NCBI GenBank assembly: GCA_019752125.1
Contig: JAIEMM010000002.1
Coordinates: 3,062 to 67,061, forward strand
Direction: 5' to 3'
Length of the DNA: 64,000 nucleotides
DNA from: Patescibacteria group bacterium
GTDB lineage: Bacteria; Patescibacteriota; Minisyncoccia; Phycocordibacterales; SBAW01
A model generated the notes under the pieces. The model did no database searches. It was given only the letters and a program-made list of their open reading frames with translations, and was not told the DNA's origin. How positions within the stretch are numbered: the stretch's first letter is position 1; every line of letters starts with the position of its first letter. Below, one piece after another: positions 2,630-62,635 of this stretch. The position numbers and the translations under genes were made by a program.

Positions 2630-3652
2630 CTAGCCCCTGTCCACGAAGGCCTGTTTCTGGGCAAATACCTCCGCAGAATGTTTCCATGAATAGGACTCTG
2701 CCTTCCTACGGCAGGCATCGGATGACACTTCAAGACATTTAAGCGCTGCGCTATGCAGGTCTGAACTCAGATAACCATCGCCCCCGTTTGTAATGATGTC
2801 TCGCGGCCCCATAACATCGTATGCAGCAACGGGGATACCGCACGCAAGCGCTTCTACTACTACAAGGCCGAATGTATCGGTTTTAGATGGAAATATCATG
2901 ACGTCCGACAATGAGAGCCACTGGACTAATTCCTCTCCACGCTTATATCCAGCGAAATACGCAACATCTCCGTACTTTGCTTCAAGCTCTCTGCGCATAG
3001 GCCCATCCCCTATGATCAACTTAGTGCCTGGTAAATCCAGATCAAAGAATGCCTGAGGATTTTTTTCTTCCGCCAGACGGCTAAAGTACGTGAACACCGG
3101 TTTTTGCAAATGAGGAAGATGGGTTGGTGTTGAAATTTTTCTGAATCGTTCAAGATCCACTCCAAACGGCCAGAATTCCACATGCTGGAACCCTTCCGCT
3201 TCGAGTGCCGCCTTAAGACTTGGAGTTGAAACAAGTGTTCGAGTAGCTGCTGCATGGAACCATCTGAGCCACGCGGTAATAATTGGAGTTACGAACGTTG
3301 AAATATAGACACCTAAATATAATTGAAGGTGCGTATGATAGGACGTAGTGAAAGGTATCTTTTGAGTAATGCAGTAGCGGCGTGCAGACAATCCTAGTGT
3401 CGCCTCAGTGGCAATATGGATAGCGTCTGGGTTGTATTCATGTAAAAGCCTGCGTAGATGTTTGCCTGGAAATAGTGCCAACGTTATCTCCGGATACAAC
3501 GGTAGCGGCATCTTGTGGCGGAATAGACCAGGATGCACAACGAGCACGTCAAAATTCTGGGCCTTCAGTTGCAAAACAATCTGCTCAAACACTGTCACAA
3601 CTCCGTTTACCTGAGGATGCCACGCGTCAGTTACAATCGCTATTTTTTTCAT
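2630..3652 (-). CDS. glycosyltransferase family 4 (GT-B, group 1)
   Basis: 340 aa; N-terminal MKKIAIVTDAWHPQVNGVV and C-terminal E(x7)E-type GT4 region. Confidence 0.75.
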   Translation of the reverse strand: MKKIAIVTDAWHPQVNGVVTVFEQIVLQLKAQNFDVLVVHPGLFRHKMPLPLYPEITLALFPGKHLRRLLHEYNPDAIHIATEATLGLSARRYCITQKIPFTTSYHTHLQLYLGVYISTFVTPIITAWLRWFHAAATRTLVSTPSLKAALEAEGFQHVEFWPFGVDLERFRKISTPTHLPHLQKPVFTYFSRLAEEKNPQAFFDLDLPGTKLIIGDGPMRRELEAKYGDVAYFAGYKRGEELVQWLSLSDVMIFPSKTDTFGLVVVEALACGIPVAAYDVMGPRDIITNGGDGYLSSDLHSAALKCLEVSSDACRRKAESYSWKHSAEVFAQKQAFVDRG

Positions 3653-7574: not shown

Positions 7575-8381
7575 ATGATCCCACGGGCAATTGCATTCGA
7601 CCTCGATGGTACGCTTGCTGAAAGTAAGCAGCCAATAACATCTGATATGGCTGAGTTGCTTTTGCAATTGATGAAGCCTGCGCAAGACCGTCCGATCGGT
7701 TCTTCCGAACCGCGGCCCGATCTTGCTGCGGCATCCGCGACAGTTGTGGGAGTTCTGTCAGGCGCTAGCTGGTCGCAGTTTCAATCACAATTCCTTTCCG
7801 CCTTCCCTGCCGGAACTGATTTTTCTAATCTCTATCTTTTCCCTGATAACGCAGCGCAGTGTTTTATATATAGAGACGGGGCCTGGCAGGAATCCTATAC
7901 TTTTGCTTTTTCACCTGCTGAAGTTGCCCAAATTACCGCGATACTCATCAATGAAGTTGAGGAAACGCATTTCCCACAACCTACTGAAACATGGGGAAAA
8001 CAGATAGAGAATCGCGGGGCTCAGATTTCATTCTCCCCACTCGGCCAGAACGCCCCACTTGAGGCAAAAAAGCAGTGGCGTGCAGAACATGATGCAGAAC
8101 GTGCCCATTTACGAGACATGTTAAGTGAAAAATTACCTGACTATTCAGTACGGACAGGCGGAGAAACCACTATAGATATCACCCGCCAAGGTATTACAAA
8201 AGGCTACGGGCTGCAGAAGCTCACAGAACTTACAGGCATTCCAGTGTCAGATATGGTGTATGTGGGAGACGCCTTGCAAGAAGGGGGCAATGATTACGTC
8301 GTCATGGAAACGGGGGTACAAACGCATCAAGTAAGCGGACCTCAAGATACGGCAGTTTTTATACAGCAATTAATTTCATAA
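7575..8381 (+). CDS. phosphomannomutase, eukaryotic-type PMM (HAD-IIB)
   Basis: HAD motif I FDLDGTL and C-terminal GDxxxxGGND motif (YVGDALQEGGNDYV); overall collinear with the PMM family. Carries an in-frame GC-rich palindromic insertion at 7692-7734. Start taken at ATG 7575; the tracked ORF starts at 7521 and would overlap the HIT gene. Confidence 0.6.
   Translation: MIPRAIAFDLDGTLAESKQPITSDMAELLLQLMKPAQDRPIGSSEPRPDLAAASATVVGVLSGASWSQFQSQFLSAFPAGTDFSNLYLFPDNAAQCFIYRDGAWQESYTFAFSPAEVAQITAILINEVEETHFPQPTETWGKQIENRGAQISFSPLGQNAPLEAKKQWRAEHDAERAHLRDMLSEKLPDYSVRTGGETTIDITRQGITKGYGLQKLTELTGIPVSDMVYVGDALQEGGNDYVVMETGVQTHQVSGPQDTAVFIQQLIS
7692..7734. repeat. CCGATCGGTTCT..CGAACCGCGGCC-family 43-nt element (copy 1), in-frame in phosphomannomutase
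   Basis: ccgatcggttcttccgaaccgcggcccgatcttgctgcggcat. Encodes the PAQDRPIGSSEPRPDLAAASA insertion, which the PMM family alignment lacks. Confidence 0.65.
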
Positions 8382-8382
8382 T

Positions 8383-8844
8383 ATGATGACCAGAACACAG
8401 TGGCTTTTGATTACCACTCCTATAGCAATTATCATTATTGGGCTTCTTGTATTGGTACTTTTACCAAATAAGCCTGCGCAGCGACCTTCTAGCCCTACCT
8501 ATGCGACAATCGACAACTTAATTGCTGTAGATGCCCCATTTAAAAACGCTACTGTTTCTTCCCCACTTGTTATCTCTGGCACAGCGCGCGGCACCTGGTA
8601 TTTTGAAGCATCTGCGCCGATAGAACTTCGTGACGCAAACGGAAAAGTAATTGCACAAGGCCACATAGATGCCAATCCGCCAGCTGGCGGAGATTGGATG
8701 ACGGAAGAGTTCGTCCCATTTAAGGCCACACTTACCTTCCCCAAGCAACCAGCGGGCTCAACTGGTACTTTGGTACTCCACAACGACAACCCATCTGGCG
8801 ATCCAGAGCGCCAAAAAGAGCTCGTCGTTCCGGTAAAGTTCTAG
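8383..8844 (+). CDS. Gmad2-like immunoglobulin-fold secreted/anchored protein
   Basis: N-terminal TM/signal, then a Gmad2-type pattern (SSPLVISGTARGTWYFEA ... GGDW ... VVPVKF). Confidence 0.5.
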   Translation: MMTRTQWLLITTPIAIIIIGLLVLVLLPNKPAQRPSSPTYATIDNLIAVDAPFKNATVSSPLVISGTARGTWYFEASAPIELRDANGKVIAQGHIDANPPAGGDWMTEEFVPFKATLTFPKQPAGSTGTLVLHNDNPSGDPERQKELVVPVKF

Positions 8845-21860: not shown

Positions 21861-23633
21861 CTATTTGCGCAATTCCTGCTGGCGTTTTTTAAGCGTTGCC
21901 AGCTTCTGCATTAACATACCCTGAGCCTCAGGAAGCGCTGCGTAAAGTTCATCTCGAACTCGGGCCATTTCCTCATCTATAAGACCCCGCTCAAGAACCT
22001 CGAGCAATTCTGCCACAATAGCATTTTTGTCCTCTCCCAACGATTCAAACTCAAAACGAAACTTTTCTGCACCGTCGGCGAATGCGTGCTCGATGTGCTC
22101 TTTGCGAGAAGCTCCTAGTAATGTTTCTACACGTTGCTTAGTACTTTCGTCTGTATCATAAAATAGCAGCAACGCAGCGGTGCGCTCCAAAGAAGAAGGT
22201 TGGTTCCCTGTTTCTACTGCCGCAGGAGTATCGCCTTCGACTTCGTTTATAGACAATACCGGTCGCTTTATAACTTCTGCATGAATTGCCGCCTCAGGCA
22301 CGCGCAAACGTCCTGCAACCGTGCGAGTAAAATGCGCTTGTTCTATCTTGCTTTGAATGGCTGCGATAAGTGGAACAACCTGCGCTTCTACAAGTTTTGC
22401 GTAGGCACGTTCATCTCGTGCCTGAGGACGGAGTACGTCCAAGAAAAATTCTATCGAGGCTTTTGACGTGCGGATTGCCTGCTTTAGTGACTCTGAATCT
22501 TCTTTAGCAATATCTGCAGGATCTTTTCCATCTTTAAAATTTGGAATCTTTACATCAAAACCCATCTTGAGCGCCATCTGTGCACTCTTAAGGCCAGCAC
22601 GAATACCAGCCGCATCACCATCGAGCGCGAGTACAAGGCGTTTTGAATATCGCGAGAGAAGAGAGAGATGTTCTTCAGTAATTGCTGTACCAGAACTTGC
22701 GACAGCGAATGGAAGGCCGGACTGGTGGCTCATAATGACATCGAACTGTCCTTCTACGAGCAACACACAATCTGCCTTGCGGATAAAATTCTTTGCCTTA
22801 TCCAATCCATACAGCACGCGCGATTTTTTAAAGATCGGAGTTTCAGGACTGTTTACATATTTTGCCGGTTCAGCCCGCGGTTCCGGAGCCCGCAAAGTCC
22901 CTTCGGGACCGCGGGCCTGGGCTTTGCGGGCTTCGCCTTCCATCTCTTCAAAGAATCTGCCTGAAAACGCGATAACCTTCCCTCCCGCGTCAAACAGCGG
23001 GAACATAATGCGCCCACGAAATCGGTCATATATGCTATCGGGCGAGGTCCGACCTCCCCCATTAGTGGCGAGGTCGGACCTCGCTGGATTAACCGCAAGG
23101 CCTGCTTCAATAATTAAATCTTTGCTATATCCTTTTTTTATTAAATATTCAGAAAGGTCGCGCCAATGCGCTGGCGCATATCCTATTCTCCAACTCTCAA
23201 TAGTTTCGTCTGTGACTCCGCGCTTTTCTTTTAGATATTCCAAAACGTCTGACCTCTTTTTGAGTTCATCTTGAAAGAACGCAGTTGCATCTTCAGACAC
23301 ATCGCGCAGTTGTTCTTCTTTTTCCTTATCTTCTTGTCGTGGAACGTAGGTGTTCTTCAGCACCACACCTGCCTTTGTCGCGAGTTGCTGAAGCGCAGTT
23401 TTAAAATCTATATGTTCTATTTTTTCAACAAAGGTAAAGATGTCGCCCTTCTCGCCACATCCAAAACAAATGTAACTCCCACGCTCTGGTGAAATCATGA
23501 ATGACGGCGTTTTTTCTTTATGAAACGGACAGCGCGCACGCATATTCCTCCCCGCCCGTTCGAGTTTTACATACTCTCCCACCACATCCTGGATAGAAAG
23601 CTTGTCTTTTATCTCCTGTACCTGCGAGTCCAT
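21861..23633 (-). CDS. dnaG: DNA primase
   Basis: CHC2 zinc finger (CPFHKEKTPSFMISPERGSYICFGCGEKGD) and TOPRIM (LVEGQFDVI). Contains two in-frame palindromic insertions. dnaG-rpoD operon arrangement. Confidence 0.9.
   Translation of the reverse strand: MDSQVQEIKDKLSIQDVVGEYVKLERAGRNMRARCPFHKEKTPSFMISPERGSYICFGCGEKGDIFTFVEKIEHIDFKTALQQLATKAGVVLKNTYVPRQEDKEKEEQLRDVSEDATAFFQDELKKRSDVLEYLKEKRGVTDETIESWRIGYAPAHWRDLSEYLIKKGYSKDLIIEAGLAVNPARSDLATNGGGRTSPDSIYDRFRGRIMFPLFDAGGKVIAFSGRFFEEMEGEARKAQARGPEGTLRAPEPRAEPAKYVNSPETPIFKKSRVLYGLDKAKNFIRKADCVLLVEGQFDVIMSHQSGLPFAVASSGTAITEEHLSLLSRYSKRLVLALDGDAAGIRAGLKSAQMALKMGFDVKIPNFKDGKDPADIAKEDSESLKQAIRTSKASIEFFLDVLRPQARDERAYAKLVEAQVVPLIAAIQSKIEQAHFTRTVAGRLRVPEAAIHAEVIKRPVLSINEVEGDTPAAVETGNQPSSLERTAALLLFYDTDESTKQRVETLLGASRKEHIEHAFADGAEKFRFEFESLGEDKNAIVAELLEVLERGLIDEEMARVRDELYAALPEAQGMLMQKLATLKKRQQELRK
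22868..22935. repeat. GC-rich nested inverted-repeat element inserted in-frame in dnaG
   Basis: Arms gcccgcgg/ccgcgggc and gcccgcaaag/ctttgcgggc. Encodes a low-complexity insertion of about 25 aa (MEGEARKAQARGPEGTLRAPEPRAEPA) just before the conserved KYxNSPET primase motif. Confidence 0.6.
23042..23084. repeat. GGTCCGACC-family palindromic element (in-frame in dnaG)
   Basis: 15-nt arms gcgaggtccgacctc / gaggtcggacctcgc with a 13-nt spacer. Encodes ARSDLATNGGGRTSP within dnaG. Confidence 0.65.
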
Positions 23634-23986: not shown

Positions 23987-30880
<6,894 letters not shown>

Positions 30881-31705: not shown

Positions 31706-32422
31706 CTACGCTCGGGGCAAACCACTCTGGCGCTTGGTGCGTTGAGTATCTATATTTGCGTGATGGCCTGAAAGTAGGACCTTCGGCACGCGATATTCTT
31801 TCTTCTTGTGAGTGAATACTTCAGGGCGAGTGTAGACATCGTGGCTTGCAACACGTTCCTCTTCCAACGATTCAAACTTGCCTAAAACACCCTTAATCTG
31901 ACGTGCAGTCGAATCAATAATAGTAAGCGCTGGAACTTCCCCGCCGGTCAAAATATACGGACCGACTGAAATCTCTTCCGCTTTCAAAATCTTCTTTACG
32001 CGGGCATCAATCCCCTCGTATCTGCCGCACAAAATAATCACTTCTTTTTCTTTTGCGAGTTTCTTAGCGTATGCATTAGTAAACTCCTTCCCACCCGCCG
32101 AAGTGATAAGAATTTTTGGTCTTGCTTGTCTAGTCCCATATATGGGACTAGATTTCGATTTACCCGTTATTTTTTCTACTGCTTTGATGAACGGCCCTGC
32201 CTGCAGCACCATGCCCGGGCCGCCGCCGTACGCTTTGTCGTCTACTTTTTTATAAAACCACTCTTTTGTCCCGCGAACTCCCTTTGCAGGAGCGCTCACA
32301 AAATCACGCAGTTGGTACGCCTTAACGCTCAGAAGTTTGTTTTTCTGGGCACGCCCCAAAATAGACGCGCTTGTATACGCTTCAATAACCTCTGGGAAGA
32401 GTGTTACTACGTGAAATTTCAT
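31706..32422 (-). CDS. trmD: tRNA (guanine37-N1)-methyltransferase
   Basis: MKFHVVTLFPEVIEAY N-terminus and LCGRYEGIDARV SPOUT motif. Carries an in-frame palindromic insertion encoding SSPIYGTRQ at 32129-32152. Confidence 0.85.
   Translation of the reverse strand: MKFHVVTLFPEVIEAYTSASILGRAQKNKLLSVKAYQLRDFVSAPAKGVRGTKEWFYKKVDDKAYGGGPGMVLQAGPFIKAVEKITGKSKSSPIYGTRQARPKILITSAGGKEFTNAYAKKLAKEKEVIILCGRYEGIDARVKKILKAEEISVGPYILTGGEVPALTIIDSTARQIKGVLGKFESLEEERVASHDVYTRPEVFTHKKKEYRVPKVLLSGHHANIDTQRTKRQSGLPRA
32129..32152. repeat. AGTCCCATATATGGGACT-family perfect palindrome (in-frame in trmD)
   Basis: tctagtcccata|tatgggactaga, 24 nt. The same core occurs at 38893-38918 and 39378-39397. Confidence 0.7.
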
Positions 32423-38892: not shown

Positions 38893-38918
38893 AAACAGTC
38901 CCATATATGGGACTGTTT
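38893..38918. repeat. AGTCCCATATATGGGACT-family perfect palindrome (26 nt) abutting the stop codon of the TrpR-like gene
   Basis: aaacagtcccatat|atgggactgttt. Lies between the smc start and the TrpR-like gene end. Confidence 0.7.
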
Positions 38919-39376
38919 TATTTCTTCGGTTTACGTTTAGTTGGTGGATATATTGGCAACGACTCACCTTTCGGAGCTGGAAGAAATAAGTAATACAAAG
39001 GATATTTTTTCTTCAATCTATATGCCAAACTCGTTGCATATAAACGCTTTTGTGTTCTCTTTTTTAACTCCTTTTCAATTCCAGTAATTACGTGCTCATA
39101 GCCAAATATCTGGTCGTCGAGCCATCTTTGAACTCGACTTACAGTTGTTTTCCCGACACGCATTCGTCTTTGAATTGCATCGTATGATTCTCCAGCAAGA
39201 AGAAGCCGAGCGATAATAATGCGTCTTCCAAGCATAATTCGTTCGCTCTGAGTTAAAAGTTCTTTTAGAAAGAGTTTTGTCACTTCCCTTCCTTTCAACA
39301 CACTCGTAGCCGTATACAATGTATCGAGTGTGACTATGATTTCCTGTTTTGTAAGATCGTCAATTTTTCGTTTCAT
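38918..39376 (-). CDS. TrpR-like YerC/YecD family DNA-binding protein
   Basis: KELLTQSERIMLGRRIIIARLLLAGESYDAIQRRMRVGKTTVSRVQRWL matches the Trp-repressor-like HTH (YerC/YecD). Basic C-terminal tail. The gene is bracketed by the same palindrome on both sides. Confidence 0.6.
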   Translation of the reverse strand: MKRKIDDLTKQEIIVTLDTLYTATSVLKGREVTKLFLKELLTQSERIMLGRRIIIARLLLAGESYDAIQRRMRVGKTTVSRVQRWLDDQIFGYEHVITGIEKELKKRTQKRLYATSLAYRLKKKYPLYYLFLPAPKGESLPIYPPTKRKPKK

Positions 39377-39377
39377 A

Positions 39378-39397
39378 CAGTCCCATATATGGGACTG
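39378..39397. repeat. AGTCCCATATATGGGACT-family perfect palindrome (20 nt) ending 1 nt before the TrpR-like gene start codon
   Basis: cagtcccata|tatgggactg immediately 5' of ATG (39376). Candidate autoregulatory operator or mobile palindromic element. Confidence 0.65.
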
Positions 39398-39523
39398 ATT
39401 GTACGCAGAAGGTGATGTGGGAGTTTTAAAGTAGTTGTAAGTTATTTCTGAACTAACAGATTACATTTACAGCAAAAGAAAAGGGCCGCAGTCTTGGCGT
39501 GTACTGCGGACCTAACGGGGATT

Positions 39524-45379: not shown

Positions 45380-46594
45380 ATGGAAGAACGCGACCACCGA
45401 ATCATTGGCAAGGAACTAGACCTGTTTACATTTTCTGACCTTGTCGGATCAGGTCTCCCACTTTGGACACCCAAAGGTACAACATTTAGAACTGAGCTGG
45501 ATACATTTATCTGGGAAATGCGCGAAGCGCGTGGATATGAACGCGTAACTATTCCCCACATTACAAAGCGCGACTTGTACGAAAAGTCGGGACATTGGGA
45601 CAAATTTGCTGAAGATCTTTTTAAGATCACATCACGCGAAGGTCGCGAATATGCGATGAAGCCGATGAACTGCCCGCACCATACGCAGATTTTTGACCGC
45701 CACCCTCACAGCTACCGTCAGATGCCGCAGCGCTATGCGGAAACTACAATGGTGTACCGCGATGAACAGTCGGGAGAACTCGGCGGCCTTACCCGCGTGC
45801 TTTCGATCACTCAAGATGACGCACACGTTTTCTGCCGTACAACTCAAGTACGCGAAGAATTCCTAAAGATCTGGGACATGGTGGATGAATTCTACAAAAA
45901 ATTCGGATTCACCTTGCGTGTCCGCCTTTCTTTCCGCGACCCAGCCGCACCTGAAAAATACATCGGCACTCCTGCTGTATGGGATGCTGCAGAAGCAGAG
46001 CTTCGCAGCCTCGCAGAAGAACGCGGCGCAGATACATTTGAAGGACCCGGCGAAGCTGCTCTGTACGGACCAAAGCTCGACTTTATGGCAAAGAACGCAG
46101 CGGGCCGCGAATGGCAAGTTGCAACTATCCAGCTCGACATGAACATTCCTGAACGCTTTGACCTCACCTGCATAAACGAAAAAGGAGAAAAAGAACGCAT
46201 CGTGATGATACACGCCGCTATCGCAGGTTCTCTTGAACGCTGCGCAGCAGTGCTTCTTGAACACTTTGATGGAAAACTTCCACTCTGGCTCTCGCCTGTA
46301 CAAGTTGCCATCCTTCCTGTTGGCGAAGGTCACCACGCATACGCAAAAGAAGTGTTTGCTCAGCTAAAAAGTGCTGGTATCCGCGCAGAACTTTCTATGG
46401 ACGAATCTCTCGGCAAGCGTATCCGTGGAACAAAAGAGCAGCGCGTTCCCTGCTTTATCGTTGTCGGTGACAAAGAAGTTGCTGAAGGCACGATAACGGT
46501 TGAGAACAACCGCAATGGTGACAAAGCTACTGTCTCAATTGCAGATTTTGTCGCGCCAACTCTCGAGCGCATCAAAGAACGCGCAAATATTTAA
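45380..46594 (+). CDS. thrS: threonyl-tRNA synthetase, catalytic plus anticodon-binding domains only (no N-terminal TGS/editing domains)
   Basis: Begins directly at the catalytic-core motif RDHRIIGKELDLF, with class II motifs (KPMNCPHH, FRDP). 404 aa against about 640 aa for canonical ThrRS. Confidence 0.8.
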   Translation: MEERDHRIIGKELDLFTFSDLVGSGLPLWTPKGTTFRTELDTFIWEMREARGYERVTIPHITKRDLYEKSGHWDKFAEDLFKITSREGREYAMKPMNCPHHTQIFDRHPHSYRQMPQRYAETTMVYRDEQSGELGGLTRVLSITQDDAHVFCRTTQVREEFLKIWDMVDEFYKKFGFTLRVRLSFRDPAAPEKYIGTPAVWDAAEAELRSLAEERGADTFEGPGEAALYGPKLDFMAKNAAGREWQVATIQLDMNIPERFDLTCINEKGEKERIVMIHAAIAGSLERCAAVLLEHFDGKLPLWLSPVQVAILPVGEGHHAYAKEVFAQLKSAGIRAELSMDESLGKRIRGTKEQRVPCFIVVGDKEVAEGTITVENNRNGDKATVSIADFVAPTLERIKERANI

Positions 46595-47510
46595 CGATAG
46601 AATTTTGAACCCGCTTCACTATCAATAGATAGGCTCCGAGCGCTGCCCATAAAAACAAGAACGCCCAGTACGCTATCGTCCCACCCATTCCAAGCTCAAG
46701 ACCTGTGTATGGTATTTGAGAAAGCGTAACAACAGGAGTAGGTAGTGGCACATACATCGGCGCTTCATATCTATAGTTATAGTGTGGACGATAATTGTTG
46801 TACGCAATATTATTTTGCAATAAGTTACAGGTTGGATACACACCGGCATATCCTTGCGGACATCCTGTCGCAAAACTGTACGAGCCGTTTTGATAGTTTG
46901 AATACGAGTTAGTGGTCGTATTTGTTGTGTTATACGAGCTGCTGTTCGTCGTGTTGTTGGTTGTGTTGCAACTGTTGTTTATACAGGAATTGTTAGTTGC
47001 TGTTGTTACCACAACACAGTTAGGAAACGTGCCGGTTGTGCCCGCAGGACAAAGGACTGGTGCAGGTGGAGGCACGGGAGGAGCGACCACAGGAGAAACT
47101 GAGCTTCCGCCTCCACCACCGCCTCCGCCCACACTGCCTCCCCCAACACCGCCGCTGCCGTCATCACCGCTTCCACCGCCACCAGCGTCGCCTCCGCCGC
47201 CACAGCATCCGCCGCCGCTGCCAGCGTCACCTCCACCGTCGCCCCCAGCACCGCCACCTGCGCCGCCATCACCTCCAGCGCCCCCGCCGCCATCGCCACC
47301 ACCATCGCCTCCTCCACCGCCATCTTGTGCGTGAACAATAGTCCCGTGGAAAAATGCGCTTCCAAGCCCATGGCCAGCAAAGTTAGTTACAAGCGCTGCA
47401 ATAAAAATAAAGCCGGTTGCCAATACAACTCCTCCGATAATCCGTAATAAATGCGACATATAGGTAATGATTTTATTAATAGTGTGCTGAATATTTGATG
47501 AGGTTTTCAT
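46572..47510 (-). CDS. Gly-rich secreted protein with C-terminal IPYTG sortase sorting signal
   Basis: Signal peptide ending VHAQD, then a long GGGD/GGGA low-complexity tract and an N/T/S/Y-rich region. C-terminus SQIPYTGLELG, hydrophobic helix, KRVQN. Confidence 0.6.
   Translation of the reverse strand: MKTSSNIQHTINKIITYMSHLLRIIGGVVLATGFIFIAALVTNFAGHGLGSAFFHGTIVHAQDGGGGGDGGGDGGGGAGGDGGAGGGAGGDGGGDAGSGGGCCGGGGDAGGGGSGDDGSGGVGGGSVGGGGGGGGSSVSPVVAPPVPPPAPVLCPAGTTGTFPNCVVVTTATNNSCINNSCNTTNNTTNSSSYNTTNTTTNSYSNYQNGSYSFATGCPQGYAGVYPTCNLLQNNIAYNNYRPHYNYRYEAPMYVPLPTPVVTLSQIPYTGLELGMGGTIAYWAFLFLWAALGAYLLIVKRVQNSIVKYLRVL
47040..47330. repeat. low-complexity GC-skewed (ggcgg)n coding repeat
   Basis: Encodes the poly-Gly/Asp/Ala tract of the IPYTG protein. 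Confidence 0.6.
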
Positions 47511-47534
47511 AAAAAATCGGAGGAGGCTTTCGCC

Positions 47535-48050
47535 TTACCCCCGATACTGCTTTGCTTTGAGCTGTGTACATCCCTGGTCGCACAGAACCAGGTCGAGAAT
47601 ACATTCTCGTGCGCCAAGTTTGATACACCAGTTGTTGCAGACTTCAGGACGGAAGATTGCATAGAAGCGCGCTTCCCCGCCTGTGTGGCGCTGTGCGGTG
47701 TACATCGTCATCCTTCGAGATGCATTGCCCCAGGCCGCAAGGTCGGATGGGTCCACGATAACGTTTGGTACCTGTTGAGTGGCGCCGAACATCATACGTG
47801 TCACCTGCCAGTTCTCGAAAACAAGAGACTGGGTCCCTTGATTTTGCTGGACCTTGCGGCGCAGCTCATCGGTGACATCCGGGTCTCGTGCAAAGAGATC
47901 CCCGAAGGCACGTAGTGCATCATCGAGCGTTCCTCTGTACGGATCGCCGCCAGGCTTACGCCAGTGGAAGAACCTATCGTCGGCCAGCACAGGGTTGAGC
48001 CCAAGCGTTGCAGCCGCCACACCCGCAAGGAGAAAATTACGTCGCCTCAT
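47535..48050 (-). CDS. secreted protein with twin-arginine (Tat) signal
   Basis: N-terminal MRRRNFLLAGVAAATLGL. About 57% GC. Last gene of a three-gene minus-strand unit. Confidence 0.45.
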   Translation of the reverse strand: MRRRNFLLAGVAAATLGLNPVLADDRFFHWRKPGGDPYRGTLDDALRAFGDLFARDPDVTDELRRKVQQNQGTQSLVFENWQVTRMMFGATQQVPNVIVDPSDLAAWGNASRRMTMYTAQRHTGGEARFYAIFRPEVCNNWCIKLGARECILDLVLCDQGCTQLKAKQYRG

Positions 48051-48052
48051 GG

Positions 48053-48763
48053 CTAGTTACTCCCATGAACAAAGTAGAAGAGCGAAGCTTTTTCTCCGTT
48101 TAGGATGCGCTGCTCAACGCGGCTAACGCCAGGGGTGTCGCTTGGCCTCGCAATCTGCGTGCTGGGTTTTCCAGCAAACCGTCCACGAATGATGGGCGCG
48201 TTGTACTTTGTTGGAATGTTCAACGCCACAGCAGGTGTAAACGAAAGATGTTTCCCTTCGCCGTCGACCAATTGCGTAAGTGGTGCACGAGGCAACACAA
48301 GCGCTACCTGACCATTCACCACCGGCCCACCTTGAGCCTTTCCATGAACCGAAGCGACCACCTTTGACCAACCAGGCACATCAGGCTGAACCGGAAACAT
48401 GCCGAGGCAGTATCCATTACCGATCAAGACTGGTAGATGCGAAGGTAAGCGTTTAGGGTTGACGTTCAGATGAAATGTCACTTCCATCGAACCGAAGTAC
48501 CGACCGACAGTTTTATAGAGCGTTTGCCCCGCCTCATTACCTTGCGCGGTGATGGCGCTATACGCACGCGCTCCATCGCCGACAACAAGAACATCGATGT
48601 GGAAATTTCTTGCCGCATCGTAATGAACGTCCTGGCCGGGTGTGCACACAGGAACTGGCGAGGATCCTTGGTCGGCAACAAACGAACTCCCTGCACCCGT
48701 GCCTGTAGAGACACACGCACCAAGCAAGAGCACTACGCACAATGACATCATGAGATTTCTCAT
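48053..48763 (-). CDS. putative lipoprotein
   Basis: Signal peptide with lipobox-like LLLGAC. About 57% GC. The next gene starts 3 nt downstream. Confidence 0.4.
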   Translation of the reverse strand: MRNLMMSLCVVLLLGACVSTGTGAGSSFVADQGSSPVPVCTPGQDVHYDAARNFHIDVLVVGDGARAYSAITAQGNEAGQTLYKTVGRYFGSMEVTFHLNVNPKRLPSHLPVLIGNGYCLGMFPVQPDVPGWSKVVASVHGKAQGGPVVNGQVALVLPRAPLTQLVDGEGKHLSFTPAVALNIPTKYNAPIIRGRFAGKPSTQIARPSDTPGVSRVEQRILNGEKASLFYFVHGSN

Positions 48764-48890
48764 GGTTTTTCCTTTCGTATGAAGATCTGACTGAAGACAT
48801 CATGACCTTTTATGTGTGAAGGACTGATGAGCGTATAGTGCAGGTAAGAAAAAGACCGTACCTCGCCGGGTGGCGAAATACGGTCTGTAG

Positions 48891-49367
48891 TTATTGGCGT
48901 TGCACTTTAGGCAACGAAGCTGGTCTATTCGGCAGATTGCCTGGCGAAGGGACCATGTCGATGACGTGGCTGCTGTTGGCGTAGGCGGCCATACGGTCGC
49001 GTGACATGACCCGCCCGGCATCATCGGTACACCATTCAAAGATGTGCCCTTTATTGAGCCAGTGTCCGCTGATGCAGAAGCGATCGTACGCCTCCTTCGT
49101 CTCGCTGTGTTGCAGATTAGCGGCATTGACCTGAACACCGTTCGCGTCGTAGATATTGAGTGTCACGACACCTGCCCTAGTCTGGTGGATGTTGTACCAC
49201 CGTGGATCAGGACAGTTGGTCGGCGTTCCCGGTTGCTGAAGATGCTTCAGACACGCCGGGTTTGTGGGGTTTGCCCCGCAATCTGCCTGCTGCGCACTGC
49301 TCACAGAAAAACTCAAGGCAAGCAGAAAGGCGGCAAGCGTTAGCACGAGAAACTTCTTACACATCAC
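48891..49367 (-). CDS. secreted Cys-containing protein
   Basis: Sec signal peptide (LALSFSVSSAQQ), six Cys. Elevated GC. Confidence 0.4.
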   Translation of the reverse strand: MMCKKFLVLTLAAFLLALSFSVSSAQQADCGANPTNPACLKHLQQPGTPTNCPDPRWYNIHQTRAGVVTLNIYDANGVQVNAANLQHSETKEAYDRFCISGHWLNKGHIFEWCTDDAGRVMSRDRMAAYANSSHVIDMVPSPGNLPNRPASLPKVQRQ

Positions 49368-49444
49368 AAGGTACTCCTTTTGGCTGCATCTTCCTTCACT
49401 CCACTACACGTGGATTGCGAAGACATAGCCGACCATCTCAAATA

Positions 49445-50083
49445 TTAATTAGAGACGATCGAATATGCCCCTACAAAATCTGCGGTGACAATGAACCGAT
49501 TACTTTTAGTTGAGAACGAATCGCACGTAACAAGCGTCAGGTGTTTTCCTTGAGGAGTTAGCTCAATAGAATCTTGGTTTGCATCCGCAACCTTTACTCC
49601 GACGACGCTGTATTGGTAATCAATATCCGATGAATACACGTGGATTATTTGTCCGGTCTTCAGTTTCTGAATATCATCGAATGCTTTATATGCTTGGTTA
49701 TGAACTACAGGTAGATAACTGCTGTGTCCAAACAAAAGCACTGTCCCATCAACACCAAGCTGTGCAGATGTTGGATAGCGGACCGAGCCTTTCAACAAGG
49801 CTTGGTCGAGCACCTCAACATCAGTCGAGACTGGATTGGCTATGGTTGCATCAAGACCAACATCTTTTGCAACCACACGCACAGGCATCTGAGGCGCCGA
49901 TACAGTCGCAGGATTTTCCTGAGTATCTGTTATTGGCCCATCTATAACCTGCGGATGTATAGGGTCAGGAGTTACACCAACACTGCGCAGAAAGACAAAC
50001 GTCAGAATGAATATAGCGATGAACGCAAGCGCAAATGCGCCTCGACGTTCACCAACTTCTCTAATTGCTCCTTTATGTGTCAT
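49445..50083 (-). CDS. sortase (transpeptidase)
   Basis: N-terminal TM anchor, catalytic His (LLFGHSS), TLVTC active-site Cys motif and conserved Arg (RFIVTADF). Confidence 0.7.
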   Translation of the reverse strand: MTHKGAIREVGERRGAFALAFIAIFILTFVFLRSVGVTPDPIHPQVIDGPITDTQENPATVSAPQMPVRVVAKDVGLDATIANPVSTDVEVLDQALLKGSVRYPTSAQLGVDGTVLLFGHSSYLPVVHNQAYKAFDDIQKLKTGQIIHVYSSDIDYQYSVVGVKVADANQDSIELTPQGKHLTLVTCDSFSTKSNRFIVTADFVGAYSIVSN

Positions 50084-50103: not shown

Positions 50104-51204
50104 TTATGCGCGTGCGCGGTTCTGGATCTGCGACATGATGAACGAGTCGATTGCGTCATGTCCGCGCTGAGCGTCAGAAACTTTCGCGGATGCCGGAGCA
50201 TATGTGAGAGCCTGCGCAACATCATCCGATCGGTTCTGTCGAACCGCGGCCTGATGTTGCTGCGGCATATGCGAAGCGTGCGACACTTCAAAGTTTTTCG
50301 CAGGTTCGGTAACTTTTTCACCGAAAAGGAAAGCCATGAATTTATTTTGCACACGCTTTACTACGATGAGGTACGCCGCAAAGAGGCACCAGAGTATAAG
50401 GAAGCCCCAGTATGCAAGTGTGCCCCAAAAACCAAGCTCAAGACCAGTATACGGGATTGATGAAAGGCTGATGTATGGGTTAGTCACACCCGAAGAAGTG
50501 ATGATGACTGGTGGTGTATATGGCTGTGAGTACGAATAACTTGGGTACGAGTAGCTTGGATATGAGTAGCTTGGATATGAGTACGACGGACTCGTATATG
50601 TAACTGTCGGAGAAGGATTTGTGATAATTGTGTTTGCAGTATTGCAGTTATTCGTGCCGACACAGTTGCTGTACGTGTATGTGTAGTTGCTGTTTGTATT
50701 TACATTGTTATAACCACCTCCGCCGTACGATGGGTATGAGTATCCGCCACCGTAGTACCCTCCGTATCCACCGCCTACTGAATAACTTGAACCGTAGAGG
50801 TAACTGTCAGAAGTGTAGGCGTAGCCTGTGTCTGGAGTATATGTATACCCATAGTCCGGAGTGTATGAGTAGCCAGAATCTACAGCATAGCTGTAACCAG
50901 CATCTGGTGTGTAGCTGAAAGAAGAGTCTGGAGTATAGCTGAAAGAAGAGTCTGGAGTATAGCTGTAGGAAGCGTCTGGAGTGTATGAGTAGCCCGAGTA
51001 GTCACAACAACCACCGTTATAACCGTAATCAAAGCTACCACTGTATCCACCACCATAGTCTGGAGTGTATGAGTAGTCACCTCCGTAGTCCTGAGCGTGA
51101 GCTGTGTGCACAAGGCCGAAAGAGAACGTCATTGCAAGTGCAAGTACGACGAAAGAGCCGAGCAAAGCAATGCTGAATGAATTGTCTTTATATGTTGCGT
51201 TCAT
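50104..51204 (-). CDS. Tyr/Ser/Thr/Pro/Asp-rich repeat surface protein with internal IPYTG sorting signal and an ~80-aa C-terminal tail
   Basis: Signal peptide ending AHAQD, then YSYTPD and SYSYP repeats. SSIPYTGLELG, a TM helix and KRVQN are followed by ~80 extra residues, which is unusual for sortase substrates. Confidence 0.6.
   Translation of the reverse strand: MNATYKDNSFSIALLGSFVVLALAMTFSFGLVHTAHAQDYGGDYSYTPDYGGGYSGSFDYGYNGGCCDYSGYSYTPDASYSYTPDSSFSYTPDSSFSYTPDAGYSYAVDSGYSYTPDYGYTYTPDTGYAYTSDSYLYGSSYSVGGGYGGYYGGGYSYPSYGGGGYNNVNTNSNYTYTYSNCVGTNNCNTANTIITNPSPTVTYTSPSYSYPSYSYPSYSYPSYSYSQPYTPPVIITSSGVTNPYISLSSIPYTGLELGFWGTLAYWGFLILWCLFAAYLIVVKRVQNKFMAFLFGEKVTEPAKNFEVSHASHMPQQHQAAVRQNRSDDVAQALTYAPASAKVSDAQRGHDAIDSFIMSQIQNRARA
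50226..50268. repeat. CCGATCGGTTCT..CGAACCGCGGCC-family 43-nt element (copy 2), in-frame in the surface-protein tail
   Basis: ccgatcggttctgtcgaaccgcggcctgatgttgctgcggcat. Matches the copy at 7692-7734 inside the PMM gene at 39 of 43 positions. Confidence 0.65.
50889..50990. repeat. tandem 24-nt coding repeats (agctgaaagaagagtctggagtat x2, plus a degenerate third)
   Basis: Seen directly; encodes the SFSYTPD repeats. A second short tandem (gagtagcttggatat x2) lies at about 50550-50579. Confidence 0.6.
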
Positions 51205-51363
51205 AATTCTTTCTTTTATTACTAATCGACCTTGTGCAGGTCATTTTATCCACAAACACCGGAGTGTTTATGGACAAGTGATGCGCACAAGTTACTAAAG
51301 AACGTTCTCTTTGTCTAAGGAGCAGGTGCCAAATCACACCTGCTCCTTGGAGTCGTCCGGCTG

Positions 51364-52140
51364 TTACCGGTCGACCTTAATCTCGGCCACGGTGGGTGCC
51401 TTGCCGAGCAAGTAGCCCGAGCTGTCGGCGATCGCGACGTTCTTGCCATCGCGATCGCGGACGATGTAGAGCTTTTGGCCGCTCTGGCAGTCCTTGAGCT
51501 CGGAGCCGATGGTGGCGAAGTTGAATTCCTTCAACCCGTTCATCTTCTGCTTGCTCTTCACGCCGACGCGGTGCTTGCCCTCGACCCCTGCCTTCTGGCA
51601 GTCGACGAGGGCGCCCTTGACCAGGAGTTCCGGACTCACATCGACTCCGGAGAACCTGGCGATGGCCGCCTCGACCTCGCCGATCGGAGCGTTCAGGACA
51701 TTGCTCTCGCTTCCCTCCTTGAAGGCGCCGGCCAGGGCCTCGATGCTCACGCCAGGCGTGAAAACACGAAACGGCTGGGCCGGAACCTGCACAGCAGGCG
51801 CCTGAGCGGCGACCTGCGGAGCCGGCACTGTCGGCCGCTGAGCAGCCTTGTCCAGTTCGTACTGCCGACGGAGCTCGTCCAGGTCGCCCTGGTTGAGCAC
51901 GACGGCCCCCGGCGCTGTTCCTGCAACCGGTACGAGGTTGGACACAGACGGAGCCGAGACCGTGGAGGTGGGCGCATCGTTGCGCTTGCACCATCCGGTA
52001 CCTGGAGTCGCCGGCTTTCCATCCGGCGTGCACCGATAGTGCTGCGGCGACGGAGCCGATCCGTAGAACTGAGCCTGTGCCGAAGTGGCGGCGAACAGGA
52101 ACGCAGTGGCCAAGACGGCCGAAACGATACGATTCAACAT
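51364..52140 (-). CDS. GC-rich secreted protein
   Basis: About 62% GC. Signal peptide (AATSAQAQF) and Pro/Ala-rich linker. A 12-bp stem hairpin (aaggagcaggtg...cacctgctcctt) lies downstream at about 51318-51351. Confidence 0.4.
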   Translation of the reverse strand: MLNRIVSAVLATAFLFAATSAQAQFYGSAPSPQHYRCTPDGKPATPGTGWCKRNDAPTSTVSAPSVSNLVPVAGTAPGAVVLNQGDLDELRRQYELDKAAQRPTVPAPQVAAQAPAVQVPAQPFRVFTPGVSIEALAGAFKEGSESNVLNAPIGEVEAAIARFSGVDVSPELLVKGALVDCQKAGVEGKHRVGVKSKQKMNGLKEFNFATIGSELKDCQSGQKLYIVRDRDGKNVAIADSSGYLLGKAPTVAEIKVDR

Positions 52141-52329
52141 GATAATAGGCCCTCCTTAGGCCAGATGAAGCTCGAGATTGAGCTGTTTCAAAGATTTCGC
52201 TTCACCCAAAGCTTCATAGAATATCCAGAGAGCTTTGGTACGATGTAGCTATTATAAATCTCATTACAACCTTTGTCAAGTCCAGCCAGTAACACAACAA
52301 AAAGCCTTACTTGACAAGTATTTTTAACT

Positions 52330-53481: not shown

Positions 53482-55601
53482 ATATCGAGGTTTGCGTTGC
53501 GTGCGTTCGACTGGATGAATGACTTGCGCGACGGCACGTCCTCGCCCATCAAGATATCGAAAATGCGGTCTGCGTCTGCCGCGTCATCAACATTCACTTG
53601 CTTCAAGACGCGGTTTGCAGGGTTCATTGTTGTCTCCCAAAGTTCCTCTGGGTTCATTTCTCCAAGACCTTTGTAGCGTTGGATGCGGATCTTGTTCGAG
53701 CGTTTGCTGTTTGTCTCCGCAGGACTCTCTGCGTCGGTCTTCGGCTCCGCAGCCGAGTCCTGCTCCGACACTTCACCGGTGGTTACTTCATCATCACCTT
53801 CTGTCTCCACCTCCTCATTTCCTATGAGTTTATTTTTCTCTTCGTCAGAATAGACATAGTTCACCTGCTTTCCCTTCTGAATCTTGTATAGAGGCGGTTG
53901 TGCGATATATACAAAACCACCATCAACAATTGGGCGGAAATGGCGGAAGAGCAACGTCAAAAGAAGCGTGCGGATGTGTGCGCCGTCCACGTCGGCATCG
54001 GTTGCGATAATGATCTTGTGGTAGCGAAGTTTGCTGATATCGAAAGTTTCGCCAATAGCTGTACCAAGAGCCACAACCAAGTTTTTGATCTGTTCTGAGC
54101 CAAGCATCTTGTCGAGGCGTGCACGTTCAACGTTCAAGATTTTTCCGCGAAGCGGGAGAATAGCCTGCGTGCGGCGGTCGCGACCCATCTTTGCCGAGCC
54201 ACCTGCCGAGTCTCCTTCCACCACGAAGAGTTCTGATTCTGAAGCATCTTTGCTTTGGCAGTCTGCGAGCTTACCTGGCAGCGTCATGCCTTCAAGTGCA
54301 CCCTTGCGGAGCACTGAATCTTTTGCAGCCTTAGCAGCTTTGCGGGCCTTAAGAGCAAGAATAGATTTCTGCAAGATAGCGCGCGCATCGTCTGGATTTT
54401 CTTCCAAGAATTCGCTAAATGCATCTGCAAAGATATTTGCAACTGCACTCTGCGCTTCAACGCTGCCGAGCTTGCCCTTTGTCTGGCCTTCGAACTGAAT
54501 TTCGCGGAGCTTTACAGAAACCACTGCAGTAAGACCTTCAAGCACGTCATCACCTGTGAGGTTTTCCTCGCTTTCTTTCAATACATTATTTTTGCGGCCG
54601 TAGGCGTTGAGCGTACGTGTAAGCGCAGTCTTAAAGCCCGTGATATGTGTACCGCCTTCTGAGTTGTAGATGTTGTTCGCAAACGGGAATACGCGCGACG
54701 ACATGTCGTCTGCATACTGGAGGGCAATTTCAACAGCCACACTGTCTTCTTCTTTGCCACCTGCTGGAGTGTATTCCTTTTCAATATAGAAAATATTTTT
54801 GTGAACTGGCTTTTGGTAGCGGTTGTAGAACGAGATAAGCGAGCGCAACCCACCTTCAAAGTAAAAGGTTTGTGATGGGCAGTCGCCGAGCTCGTCTCGG
54901 ATAAACAATGCTTCACCTGGTTTTGGCAATTTTGCTTCGCTCTTTCGTGCATCAATGATGGTGATGCGGAGGCCCTTAACCAAGTACGCCTGTTCACGGA
55001 GGTGAGAGACGATTTTGTCGAAGTTGTATTCGATCCCAGCTGTAAAGATTGAAGGGTCTGCCTGGTATGCAGTAACTGTGCCGTGCAATTTTGATGAGCC
55101 GAGTCTTTTTACTGGAGCCTTTCTCTTGCCGAGCGCATACTCCTGCATGTGTACGCCGCCATCGCGGTGAACTTCTGCACGGAGGTAGGTTGAGAGTGCG
55201 TTAACTACCGATGCGCCCACGCCGTGGAGACCGCCAGATACTTTGTAGCCTTCGCCGCCGAATTTACCGCCGGCGTGAAGAGTCGACATGATAGTTTCAA
55301 GAGCTGAAACTTTTGTTGTCTTGTGAACGTCAACAGGAATACCGCGACCGTTATCGGCAACGCGGATAAACGGAGCTTCATCTTTTCCGCCCGGCAAGAT
55401 AACGACCTCAATGTCGTTAGCAAAACCACCCATGGCTTCGTCGCGTGAGTTGTCGAAGATTTCCCAGATAAGGTGGTGGAGACCATCGGGACCAGTGGTA
55501 CCGATGTACATGCCGGGACGGCGGCGTACTGCTTCCAACCCTTCAAGAACTGTAATCGACGATGCGTCGTAATTTGTTTTTTTAGTTTTATCAGCAGCCA
55601 T
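53478..55601 (-). CDS. gyrB: DNA gyrase subunit B
   Basis: GHKL ATPase ([18 protein letters not shown]), TOPRIM (EGDSAGGS) and C-terminal [20 protein letters not shown]. Acidic insertion near the C-terminus, encoded by nested palindromes at 53719-53763. Confidence 0.9.
53719..53763. repeat. nested inverted repeats in-frame in gyrB
   Basis: gcaggactc...gagtcctgc enclosing ctgcg...cgcag. Encodes part of the [20 protein letters not shown] insertion. Confidence 0.5.
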
Positions 55602-62586: not shown

Positions 62587-62635
62587 TGACCAAGGTCCGA
62601 CCTTGCCATCCTCTGGCAAGGTCGGACCTTGGTCA
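62587..62635. repeat. GGTCCGACC-family element: perfect 22-bp-stem hairpin in the prfA-rpsB intergenic region
   Basis: tgaccaaggtccgaccttgcca-tcctc-tggcaaggtcggaccttggtca. Overlaps the prfA stop codon by 3 nt. Confidence 0.7.

Follow-up and report, generated by a model that had tools for sequence, protein, structure and literature searches.

The window analysed here is a stretch of 64,000 nucleotides from the genome of a Patescibacteria group bacterium (assembly GCA_019752125.1, contig JAIEMM010000002.1, positions 3,062 to 67,061), and the source genome was examined within this window. Two of its genes each carry, in an open frame, a copy of a palindromic element of about 72 nt that recurs at unrelated sites in other genomes and is probably a non-autonomous mobile element. 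A sequence-only reading of the window had reported a repeated 43-mer at 7692-7734 and 50226-50268. Both 43-mers were found at these coordinates, with 39 of 43 positions identical. The repeat is one of nucleotide sequence, as that reading proposed, but the size of 43 nt did not stand, as 25 further copies define a unit of ~72 nt (24 codons). Within the window, a repeat finder extends the similarity to 66 nt that are 86% identical (7675-7740 vs 50209-50274). The 43-mer with up to three mismatches gave no matches in 100 dinucleotide shuffles of the window, and the core CGGTTC-N4-GAACCG occurs twice where 0.12 occurrences are expected. Chance is therefore rejected as the source of the match. We refer to the two copies as W1 (7674..7745, + strand) and W2 (50208..50279, + strand). 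They score 88.3 and 84.0 bits, respectively, with R1, a covariance model (CM) of the element for which E-values are rough.

Host genes of the two copies

Host gene 1 (7575..8381, + strand) encodes a HAD-IIB / PMM-like hydrolase (Pfam PMM, 1.1e-12). An NCBI entry, 'HAD-IIB family hydrolase [Patescibacteria group bacterium]', has the identical protein sequence. W1 lies in the sense strand of this gene in phase 0, giving the peptide KPAQDRPIGSSEPRPDLAAASATV, and encodes residues 34-57, between helix 1 (residues 23-33) and strand 2 (residues 57-61). Multiple alignment of PMM homologues, a check suggested with the sequence-only reading, confirmed an insertion: the segment KPAQDRPIGSSEPRPDLAAASAT lacks a counterpart in alignments of 19 and 81 homologues, except in P0002 and P0003. 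The claim that the peptide has no counterpart in the PMM family is thus correct for 78 of the 81 aligned homologues but not for these two relatives, in whose DNA (L001 and L002) the element is inverted within the same loop and read as NVENAEAELSRGSSEPVEKFRAGS. The three filled HAD genes do not form a clade. Each has an empty gene for its nearest relative, which for P0002 is P0004 (75.8%) and for P0003 is P0005 (78.2%). In the AlphaFold prediction for the HAD protein, the one host protein modelled, the mean pLDDT (predicted local distance difference test score) is 94. The insert is coil with values of ~58, and the rest of the chain exceeds 90. The insert is thus modelled as a low-confidence surface loop at a position compatible with the fold, in agreement with the suggestion that such insertions would map to surface loops.

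The closest empty HAD homologues (P0004-P0006) have ~3 loop residues fewer than distant homologues (QL-P-LVAV vs QLMESAVVAV). This short loop could be the scar of an element excision or deletion.

Host gene 2 (50104..51204, - strand) encodes a repeat protein that is secreted and has the sorting motif IPYTG, a transmembrane segment, KR residues and a 78-aa tail. It adjoins a sortase gene (49445-50083, - strand; Pfam Sortase, 1.9e-17). A paralogue with the same sorting signal (46572-47510, - strand) has a tail of only 11 aa. Placement of the second copy in the tail of a sortase substrate was borne out, as the tail downstream of the sortase-type motif holds nested elements. W2 is antisense to the gene, and its peptide MPQQHQAAVRQNRSDDVAQA is read as ..SHMPQQHQAAVRQNRSDDVAQA... 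The two copies do lie in two unrelated proteins, and both are in frame without stops. What had been described as a use of different frames is, more precisely, a use of opposite coding strands.

W2 is reversed between two 22-nt remnants of an older copy that runs in the sense of the gene. The 5' end of this older copy (GAACCTGCGAAAAACTTTGAAG; 50286..50307, - strand) was recognized by alignment with the orthologous tail in L035, and its 3' end (TGCTCCGGCATCCGCGAAAGTT; 50179..50200, - strand) by the repeat finder and the same alignment. W2 has a different middle-stem subtype, and the frame is kept to the conserved stop. Orthologues of host gene 2 in L035, L019 and L039 have one intact sense copy in the tail with conserved flanks, and the C-terminus HDAIDSFIMSQIQNRARA is also conserved in orthologues (..HDAIDSFIMGQIQNRARA). 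W2 is thus nested in an older, oppositely oriented copy of the same family.

Other observations concern this region. A 127-aa tail of host gene 2 had no match in a collection of 5.8 billion proteins, itself included; the HAD protein of the same NCBI genome is present in that collection. The public record may lack an annotation of host gene 2 or have a different call for it. The sortase and substrate genes are flanked by blocks of raised GC content (47000-49400 and 51300-52150; 0.53-0.58 vs ~0.48). The open reading frames (ORFs) in these blocks had no Pfam match, and one of them has a Tat-like signal (MRRRNFLLAGVAAATLG). The blocks are possibly acquired DNA or a fast-evolving surface-protein island.

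Structure and covariation of the element

The consensus of ~72 nt consists of RAGCCTGCGCA, one arm of a variable middle stem, CGGTTCT-N3-GAACCG, the other arm of the middle stem, and CTGCTNCGGCATCCGCRACAKTT. The start (RAGCCTGCGCA) and the end (GCTNCGGCATCCGCRACAKTT) are conserved. The internal hairpin CGGTTC-N4-GAACCG noted earlier is genuine, but it is merely the apex of a 24-bp imperfect hairpin with conserved bulges (T8, A24-T25 and T57) and a conserved apical stem (CGGTTC/GAACCG). In W1 the hairpin spans 7676-7732, with the apical stem-loop CGGTTCttccGAACCG at 7697-7712, and in W2 it spans 50210-50266. The hairpin arms, GCCTGCGCA and TGCTNCGGC, are imperfect inverted repeats, beyond which lies an asymmetric 13-nt 3' tail. 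This tail (ATCCGCRACAKTT) is conserved and unpaired. Because of the conserved bulges and the unpaired tail, the element is asymmetric.

The W1 and W2 sequences fold at about -34 kcal/mol on either strand (z -2.2 to -3.2). Their middle stems differ at two compensated pairs (GCAAGAcCG/CGaTCTTGC vs GCAACATCA/TGATGTTGC). This pattern extends to the family. Across the 24-pair hairpin in 26 copies, the middle-stem sequence is variable yet paired, with 90.7% of cells paired vs 35-47% in slid controls. Ten of the 24 pairs vary on both sides, in 62 cells, and the covariation score was reached by none of 500 shuffles. Strong covariation was also seen in a version with 19 copies. Pairs that the search patterns hold constant show no variation and are uninformative; the covariation sits in the middle stem, which the patterns do not constrain. 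The middle-stem subtype tracks the genome and not the site.

Mismatches on the top strand are mostly A.C (23, vs 6 G.T), so the bottom strand folds better, in agreement with the W1 and W2 folds. The bottom strand is the non-mRNA strand in most copies. This is a hint that the relevant hairpin is DNA rather than mRNA, although the hint is weakened by the shared ancestry of the copies. In a search of the window against Rfam 15, only a tRNA was above the gathering threshold, and nothing overlaps the element at E-values up to 10.

Some type-A copies (L002:1260-1292, L011:2610-2640 and L027, the last with the same sequence) have a second small hairpin (GCACCTGCCCGTCCGGCAGGCGGGTCC) in place of the 3' tail, which suggests composite or variant 3' ends.

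A dispersed family

We scanned 185,579 species-representative genomes with the pattern GCCTGCGCA-N10-14-CGGTTC-N4-GAACCG. This returned 15 loci, 13 of which have the exact 12-nt spacing. Twelve of these 13 true copies are in four Ca. (Candidatus) Adlerbacteria / Paceibacterota metagenome-assembled genomes (MAGs), with at most six per genome, and one is on a contig labelled Saccharibacteria. A second scan, of metagenomes, used a pattern taken from the opposite half of the element (CGGTTCT-N3-GAACCG-N12-14-CTNCGGCA). It added 12 true copies, all of which start with RAGCCTGCGCA, an end absent from the pattern. The total is 27 copies (two in the window and 25 from the scans) at ~21 distinct sites with unrelated flanks, nearly all from Ca. 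Adlerbacteria / Paceibacterota assemblies. A distance of exactly 54 nt separates the 5' and 3' end motifs in all canonical copies. Thus, the similarity does not stop at the two loci of the window, as two independent pattern scans show. The earlier suggestion of an in-frame spread of a nucleotide repeat, beyond what shared protein constraint could explain, now extends to all of these copies and sites in several genomes.

No match to the element was found in phage, plasmid and viral-contig collections. Two viral pattern matches, and matches in Pseudomonas and Qipengyuania, were discarded due to wrong spacing and are attributed to chance or terminators. A doubled-peptide profile yielded 8000 candidates, none at E <= 1. 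We also considered a DNA uptake sequence. Such sequences (DUS/USS) are roughly 10 nt long and occur about once per kb. The idea was rejected, as the element is 72 nt long and occurs about once per 30-90 kb.

Reading frames and coding context

Twenty of the ~21 sites (~95% of the sample) are intragenic. At all of these the element is stop-free in the host frame and the downstream frame is kept. Use of the six possible frames is uneven. Fifteen sites are read in the sense direction and in one phase (+0), giving the peptide (K/E)PAQNFSIGSxEPRxxSASASAT. Hosts of this group include HAD, Gmad2, PheT, a Dus-like protein, a TopA-like protein, an alpha/beta hydrolase, several secreted or hypothetical proteins and the orthologue of host gene 2. 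The antisense frame ..DAEAELSRGSxEPxEKFCAG.. (-1) is used at two sites (HAD of L001/L002, and L005), and the antisense frame ..MPxQ..AAVxQNRS..AQA (-2) at three (W2, L010b and a RpiB-like protein in L018). Frames +1, +2 and -0 were not seen at any site. These three unused frames would encode strongly basic or Cys-rich peptides (net charge +4.8, +2.2 with 2.3 Cys, and +7.5). Copies have a mean of 4.78 stop-free frames, vs 3.82 in dinucleotide shuffles and 2.95 in random 72-mers of the window. The frame bias is best read as a survival filter, not as a sign of an origin at the protein level. The one intergenic site is the prfA-rpsB spacer (L017/L022 and L028), where the element lies just past the prfA stop codon.

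Turnover at shared sites

Full copies of the element occupy a site in the Gmad2 gene, a neighbour of the HAD gene, in L001 and L002, with differing middle-stem subtypes. At the corresponding site of the window (8470..8493, + strand), AAGCCTGCGCAG directly abuts CGACCTTCTAGC. Only the two ends of the element are left there (junction AAGCCTGCGCAG/CGACCT), and the hairpin is gone. The remnant is a deletion scar. Candidates for further scars at 3446-3457 and 45982-46012 look like chance matches.

Fragments also occur beside complete copies. In L021 and L028 an inverted 3'-terminal fragment lies immediately upstream of the full copy, in L006 a reverse-complement 5' end lies just downstream of the copy, and L012 has a partial second copy. 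Filled and empty orthologues, the Gmad2 scar, the nesting in host gene 2 and these adjacent inverted fragments together indicate turnover.

Some sites hold different palindromes in different genomes. The prfA-rpsB spacer contains the element in L017 and L028, and in the window it contains a 22-bp perfect palindrome of another family (the CAAGGTCCGACCTTG family, described below; 62587-62635). In pheT, between the motifs HDPF and TPLCKRY, L009 has the element and the window has an unrelated palindrome with an 18-bp perfect stem (~57722-57790). In the HAD loop, the orientation of the element varies between genomes. Since the subtype follows the genome and not the site, these cases point to replacement, gene conversion or preferential insertion into hairpins already there.

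Other palindromes in the window

The sequence-only reading also related GC-rich palindromes in gyrB and dnaG to the repeat. For gyrB this is tenable only in the sense of a distant sister family (26.8 bits, E 2e-4 with R1). Such weak CM matches need caution, because a pattern-preselected Pseudomonas terminator scored 28 bits with R1. The gyrB palindrome (53709..53785, + strand) is antisense to the gene and in frame, with similar ends and a different core (CTCTGCGTCGGTCTTCGGCTCCGCAGCCG). Its homologues (L011:2674-2751 and L027:670-747) have the same core, family-like ends and the same frame, and encode the peptide ..EPKTDAE... It is probably a copy of a sister family. The dnaG palindrome at 22868-22935 proved to be an in-frame palindromic insertion, but without significant similarity to the element (13.3 bits, E 0.76). 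This nested GC-rich structure, in a gene on the - strand, folds at -48 kcal/mol (z -4.8) and is read as ..EGEARKAQARGPEGTLRAPEPRAEP... Together with a second palindrome at 23042-23084, it is an in-frame insertion within the primase catalytic domain.

The latter palindrome belongs to a second family (CAAGGTCCGACCTTG..loop..CAAGGTCGGACCTTG) with 17-22-bp stems and z-scores of -5.5 to -11. Its copies are at 23042-23084 (dnaG), 57474-57516 (pheT) and 62587-62635 (prfA-rpsB spacer), two of them in frame in essential genes. The pheT copy adds ~13 residues (GQGPTLSGDGKVG) that are absent in the L009 orthologue. The ends of this family are faintly like those of the 72-nt element (AAGCtTGgGCAAG ... CTTGCTaCGcCATC), with a CM score that is not significant (E 0.16). 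The other pheT palindrome (~57722-57790, - strand, codons ~80-103) is also in frame, with the stem GGAAACAGTTGCTTCTC / GAGAAGCAACTGTTTCC. Its left flank (GCTTCGGAAACAGTT) is like the 3' end of the element minus CATCCGC.

A 16-nt perfect mini-palindrome (TCCGCCAGCTGGCGGA) occurs three times (2355-2373, 8673-8691 and 56316-56334). The Gmad2 and pheT copies are read in frame as PPAGG, which the L001 and L009 orthologues do not have. It may represent a third, very short family of intragenic palindromes. An AT-centred palindrome (ACAGTCCCATATATGGGACTGT) also occurs three times (32130-32153, 38893-38918 and 39377-39400). Two of these copies bracket a small gene (38918-39376) and are intergenic, and the palindrome looks like an operator or terminator-type site, not a coding insert. 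Finally, the region 23987-30880 (- strand) is one ORF of 2297 codons, with Pfam Rpb2 domains at residues 30-1058 followed by Rpb1 domains at residues 1077-2173. This is a fused rpoB-rpoC gene in which all RpoB domains precede all RpoC domains.

Mobility and alternative explanations

Dispersal, maintenance of the hairpin, persistence in frame with a frame filter, presence and absence in orthologues, decay and nesting were all observed. The explanation that we consider probable is a lineage-specific, non-autonomous mobile palindromic element of ~72 nt whose in-frame copies survive selection. Such an element would have dispersed through the genomes of Ca. Adlerbacteria (Patescibacteria), its hairpin being recognized, we suggest, as single-stranded DNA by an enzyme acting in trans. 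Most insertions would land in genes because these genomes are almost wholly coding. The copies that persist would be those with a length that is a multiple of three, with no stop in the host frame, and with a hydrophilic, near-neutral, Cys-free peptide whose place in the protein is a surface loop, a linker or an expendable tail. Such copies would be translated within the host protein. New copies or gene-conversion tracts may preferentially land in existing palindromes, which would explain why the same sites have different palindromes.

Several points weigh against this explanation. No transposase was identified among the 30 window proteins scanned against Pfam. A search of 342 kb for an autonomous parent yielded no gene enclosed by 5' and 3' end motifs at a distance of 0.2-5 kb. 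The flanks of 27 copies have no target-site duplication or common target motif, although a very short duplication could escape detection. Simple random transposition does not predict that identical sites have different palindromes in related genomes, as seen for the HAD loop, pheT and the prfA-rpsB spacer. Discovery of the copies relied on exact matches to a fixed core and one fixed end, so the conservation of these parts is partly a matter of ascertainment, and several copies are orthologous and hence phylogenetically non-independent. The case for mobility is comparative throughout, and translation of the inserts is likewise suggested by open frames and conserved downstream frames.

Some of these patterns would fit palindromes that arise and are remodelled in place, through template-switch (fold-back) replication errors or gene conversion at fragile sites, with the family resulting from concerted evolution and without transposition. 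Different palindromes at the same sites in related genomes, subtypes that track the genome rather than the site, and nested and adjacent inverted fragments are all compatible with this, and stem changes are nearly always compensated, as expected of arm-to-arm templating. We nevertheless regard it as unlikely. Local events cannot account for a single 72-nt sequence, asymmetric in its ends and bulges, at ~21 unrelated sites, so some copying between sites is required. Correction from arm to arm would also erase T8, AT 24-25, T57 and the unpaired 3' tail. A cis-acting structured RNA motif, kept in mRNAs for regulation (e.g., as a site for RNase III or a regulator, or as a stability hairpin), would have the strong covariation, conserved bulges, conserved apical stem and stable folds that we found, and copies right after the prfA stop codon would suit it. 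It is quite unlikely, given that the host genes are functionally unrelated, that copies occur in both orientations relative to transcription, and that in most copies the strand present in the mRNA folds less well (A.C over G.T). Presence/absence differences between orthologues, decay scars and the lack of an Rfam match also argue against it.

The recognizable peptide shared, in one frame, by 15 of ~21 sites raises the idea that the repeat is a module at the protein level, a flexible PAQ..GS.EP..SASA linker that recombination or convergence has spread, and that the likeness in DNA is secondary to it. This is very improbable: at five sites the reading is antisense, in two frames whose peptides are unrelated, some copies are intergenic, the middle stem conserves nucleotide pairing and not peptide sequence, and the insert is predicted to be disordered. 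The insert might instead go untranslated, the ribosome skipping it or the segment being removed, as happens with T4 gene 60 or the 'byp' inserts in Magnusiomyces mitochondria. In favour of this, the hairpin is GC-rich and lies within essential genes, and the analogous yeast mitochondrial inserts are bypassed (PMC5009743). We find this scarcely credible, since at none of the 20 intragenic sites does a stop interrupt the host frame or the element shift the frame downstream, its length is divisible by three, and frames giving unfavourable peptides are absent, all of which would be needless if the segment were skipped. Because the frame is so consistently preserved, bypass-type inserts are excluded as a model.

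A broader version of the mobile-element explanation is that the element belongs to a superfamily of Patescibacteria hairpin elements with shared ends and interchangeable cores, which target pre-existing hairpins or cruciforms. This idea is tentative and, in our view, doubtful. Other candidates for membership are the gyrB-type family, the CAAGGTCCGACCTTG family and other site-specific palindromes. If the idea were true, fixed palindrome sites in essential genes would be continually re-occupied, inverted and remodelled. Single-stranded-DNA hairpin mobility, or gene conversion, of this kind would be new, and would act as a standing generator of new surface loops and C-terminal tails in ultra-small bacteria.

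Comparison with known systems

Imperfect hairpins with a single-stranded flank are recognized, on single-stranded DNA, by HUH Y1 transposases, as in the systems of repetitive extragenic palindromic sequences (REPs) with their REP-associated tyrosine transposases (RAYTs) and of the IS200/IS605 insertion sequences (IS). REPs are by definition extragenic and 20-40 nt long. The element shares with REPs, their composite bacterial interspersed mosaic elements (BIMEs) and IS200/IS605 an imperfect hairpin, conserved bulges and a short conserved single-stranded flank. As in REP/BIME-RAYT systems, copies cluster in alternating orientation without evident target-site duplication. Unlike REPs, the element is intragenic at ~95% of sites, and it lacks a conserved GTAG-type 5' tetranucleotide. 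Among the window proteins scanned, no RAYT or TnpA gene product came to light.

Bacterial MITEs (transposable elements of the miniature inverted-repeat type; e.g., ERIC, Correia/NEMIS and QMITE1; PMC10969869) are likewise small, with inverted-repeat arms, dispersed copies and occasional in-frame fusions to ORFs. However, the terminal inverted repeats of classical MITEs match a parent IS and are accompanied by target-site duplications, neither of which was found for the element. In-frame residence within genes is the rule for the element and the exception for MITEs. GC clusters and byps of yeast mitochondria (PMC5009743) are also short GC-rich palindromic inserts in genes of a compact genome. 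Byps break the frame and are bypassed by the ribosome, whereas the element keeps the frame and is evidently read through.

The closest functional analogue appears to be the Rickettsia palindromic element (RPE). RPEs were reportedly described by Ogata et al. in Science in 2000 and in Genome Research in 2002, where they are said to be called 'a unique but recurrent feature'. Both RPEs and the element are short palindromic repeats without coding capacity for a transposase that are dispersed in a reduced genome. Both occur in frame in unrelated housekeeping genes, read as extra peptide segments compatible with the fold, and also in non-coding DNA. In both cases several related families coexist, and a mobilising enzyme has been identified for neither. 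RPEs are ~150 bp long by one account and form ten families; they are often found in-frame within metabolic genes, and the fold of the protein is predicted to tolerate them (PMC10969869). The differences begin with the hosts (Patescibacteria vs Alphaproteobacteria); we claim no relationship in sequence, and the likeness is one of lifestyle. The element is shorter (~72 nt vs roughly 100-150 bp). It is intragenic at ~95% of sampled sites, whereas in R. felis 85 of 728 RPEs are within ORFs (PMC1166351). It also uses three frames on both strands, and its copies nest or replace one another at fixed sites.

Our literature search returned nothing relevant linking palindromic, MITE or RPE-type elements with the Candidate Phyla Radiation (CPR), Patescibacteria or Adlerbacteria. 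By analogy, the best reading is that the element represents a new family in a new phylum, with a lifestyle like that of RPEs. Palindromic repeats translated in frame have so far been treated as a peculiarity of Rickettsia. The element suggests that very compact, coding-dense genomes repeatedly give rise to 'selfish DNA inside proteins'. Model R1 and the 72-nt consensus can serve as an annotation aid for unexplained inserts of 20-25 residues in CPR proteins (affected essential proteins include PheT, TopA, GyrB, DnaG and Dus). The finding also bears on homology modelling, on phylogenetic markers and on assessments of MAG quality. Nested copies, and sites that have different palindromes in different genomes, offer a tractable entry to the movement of such elements, RPEs included.

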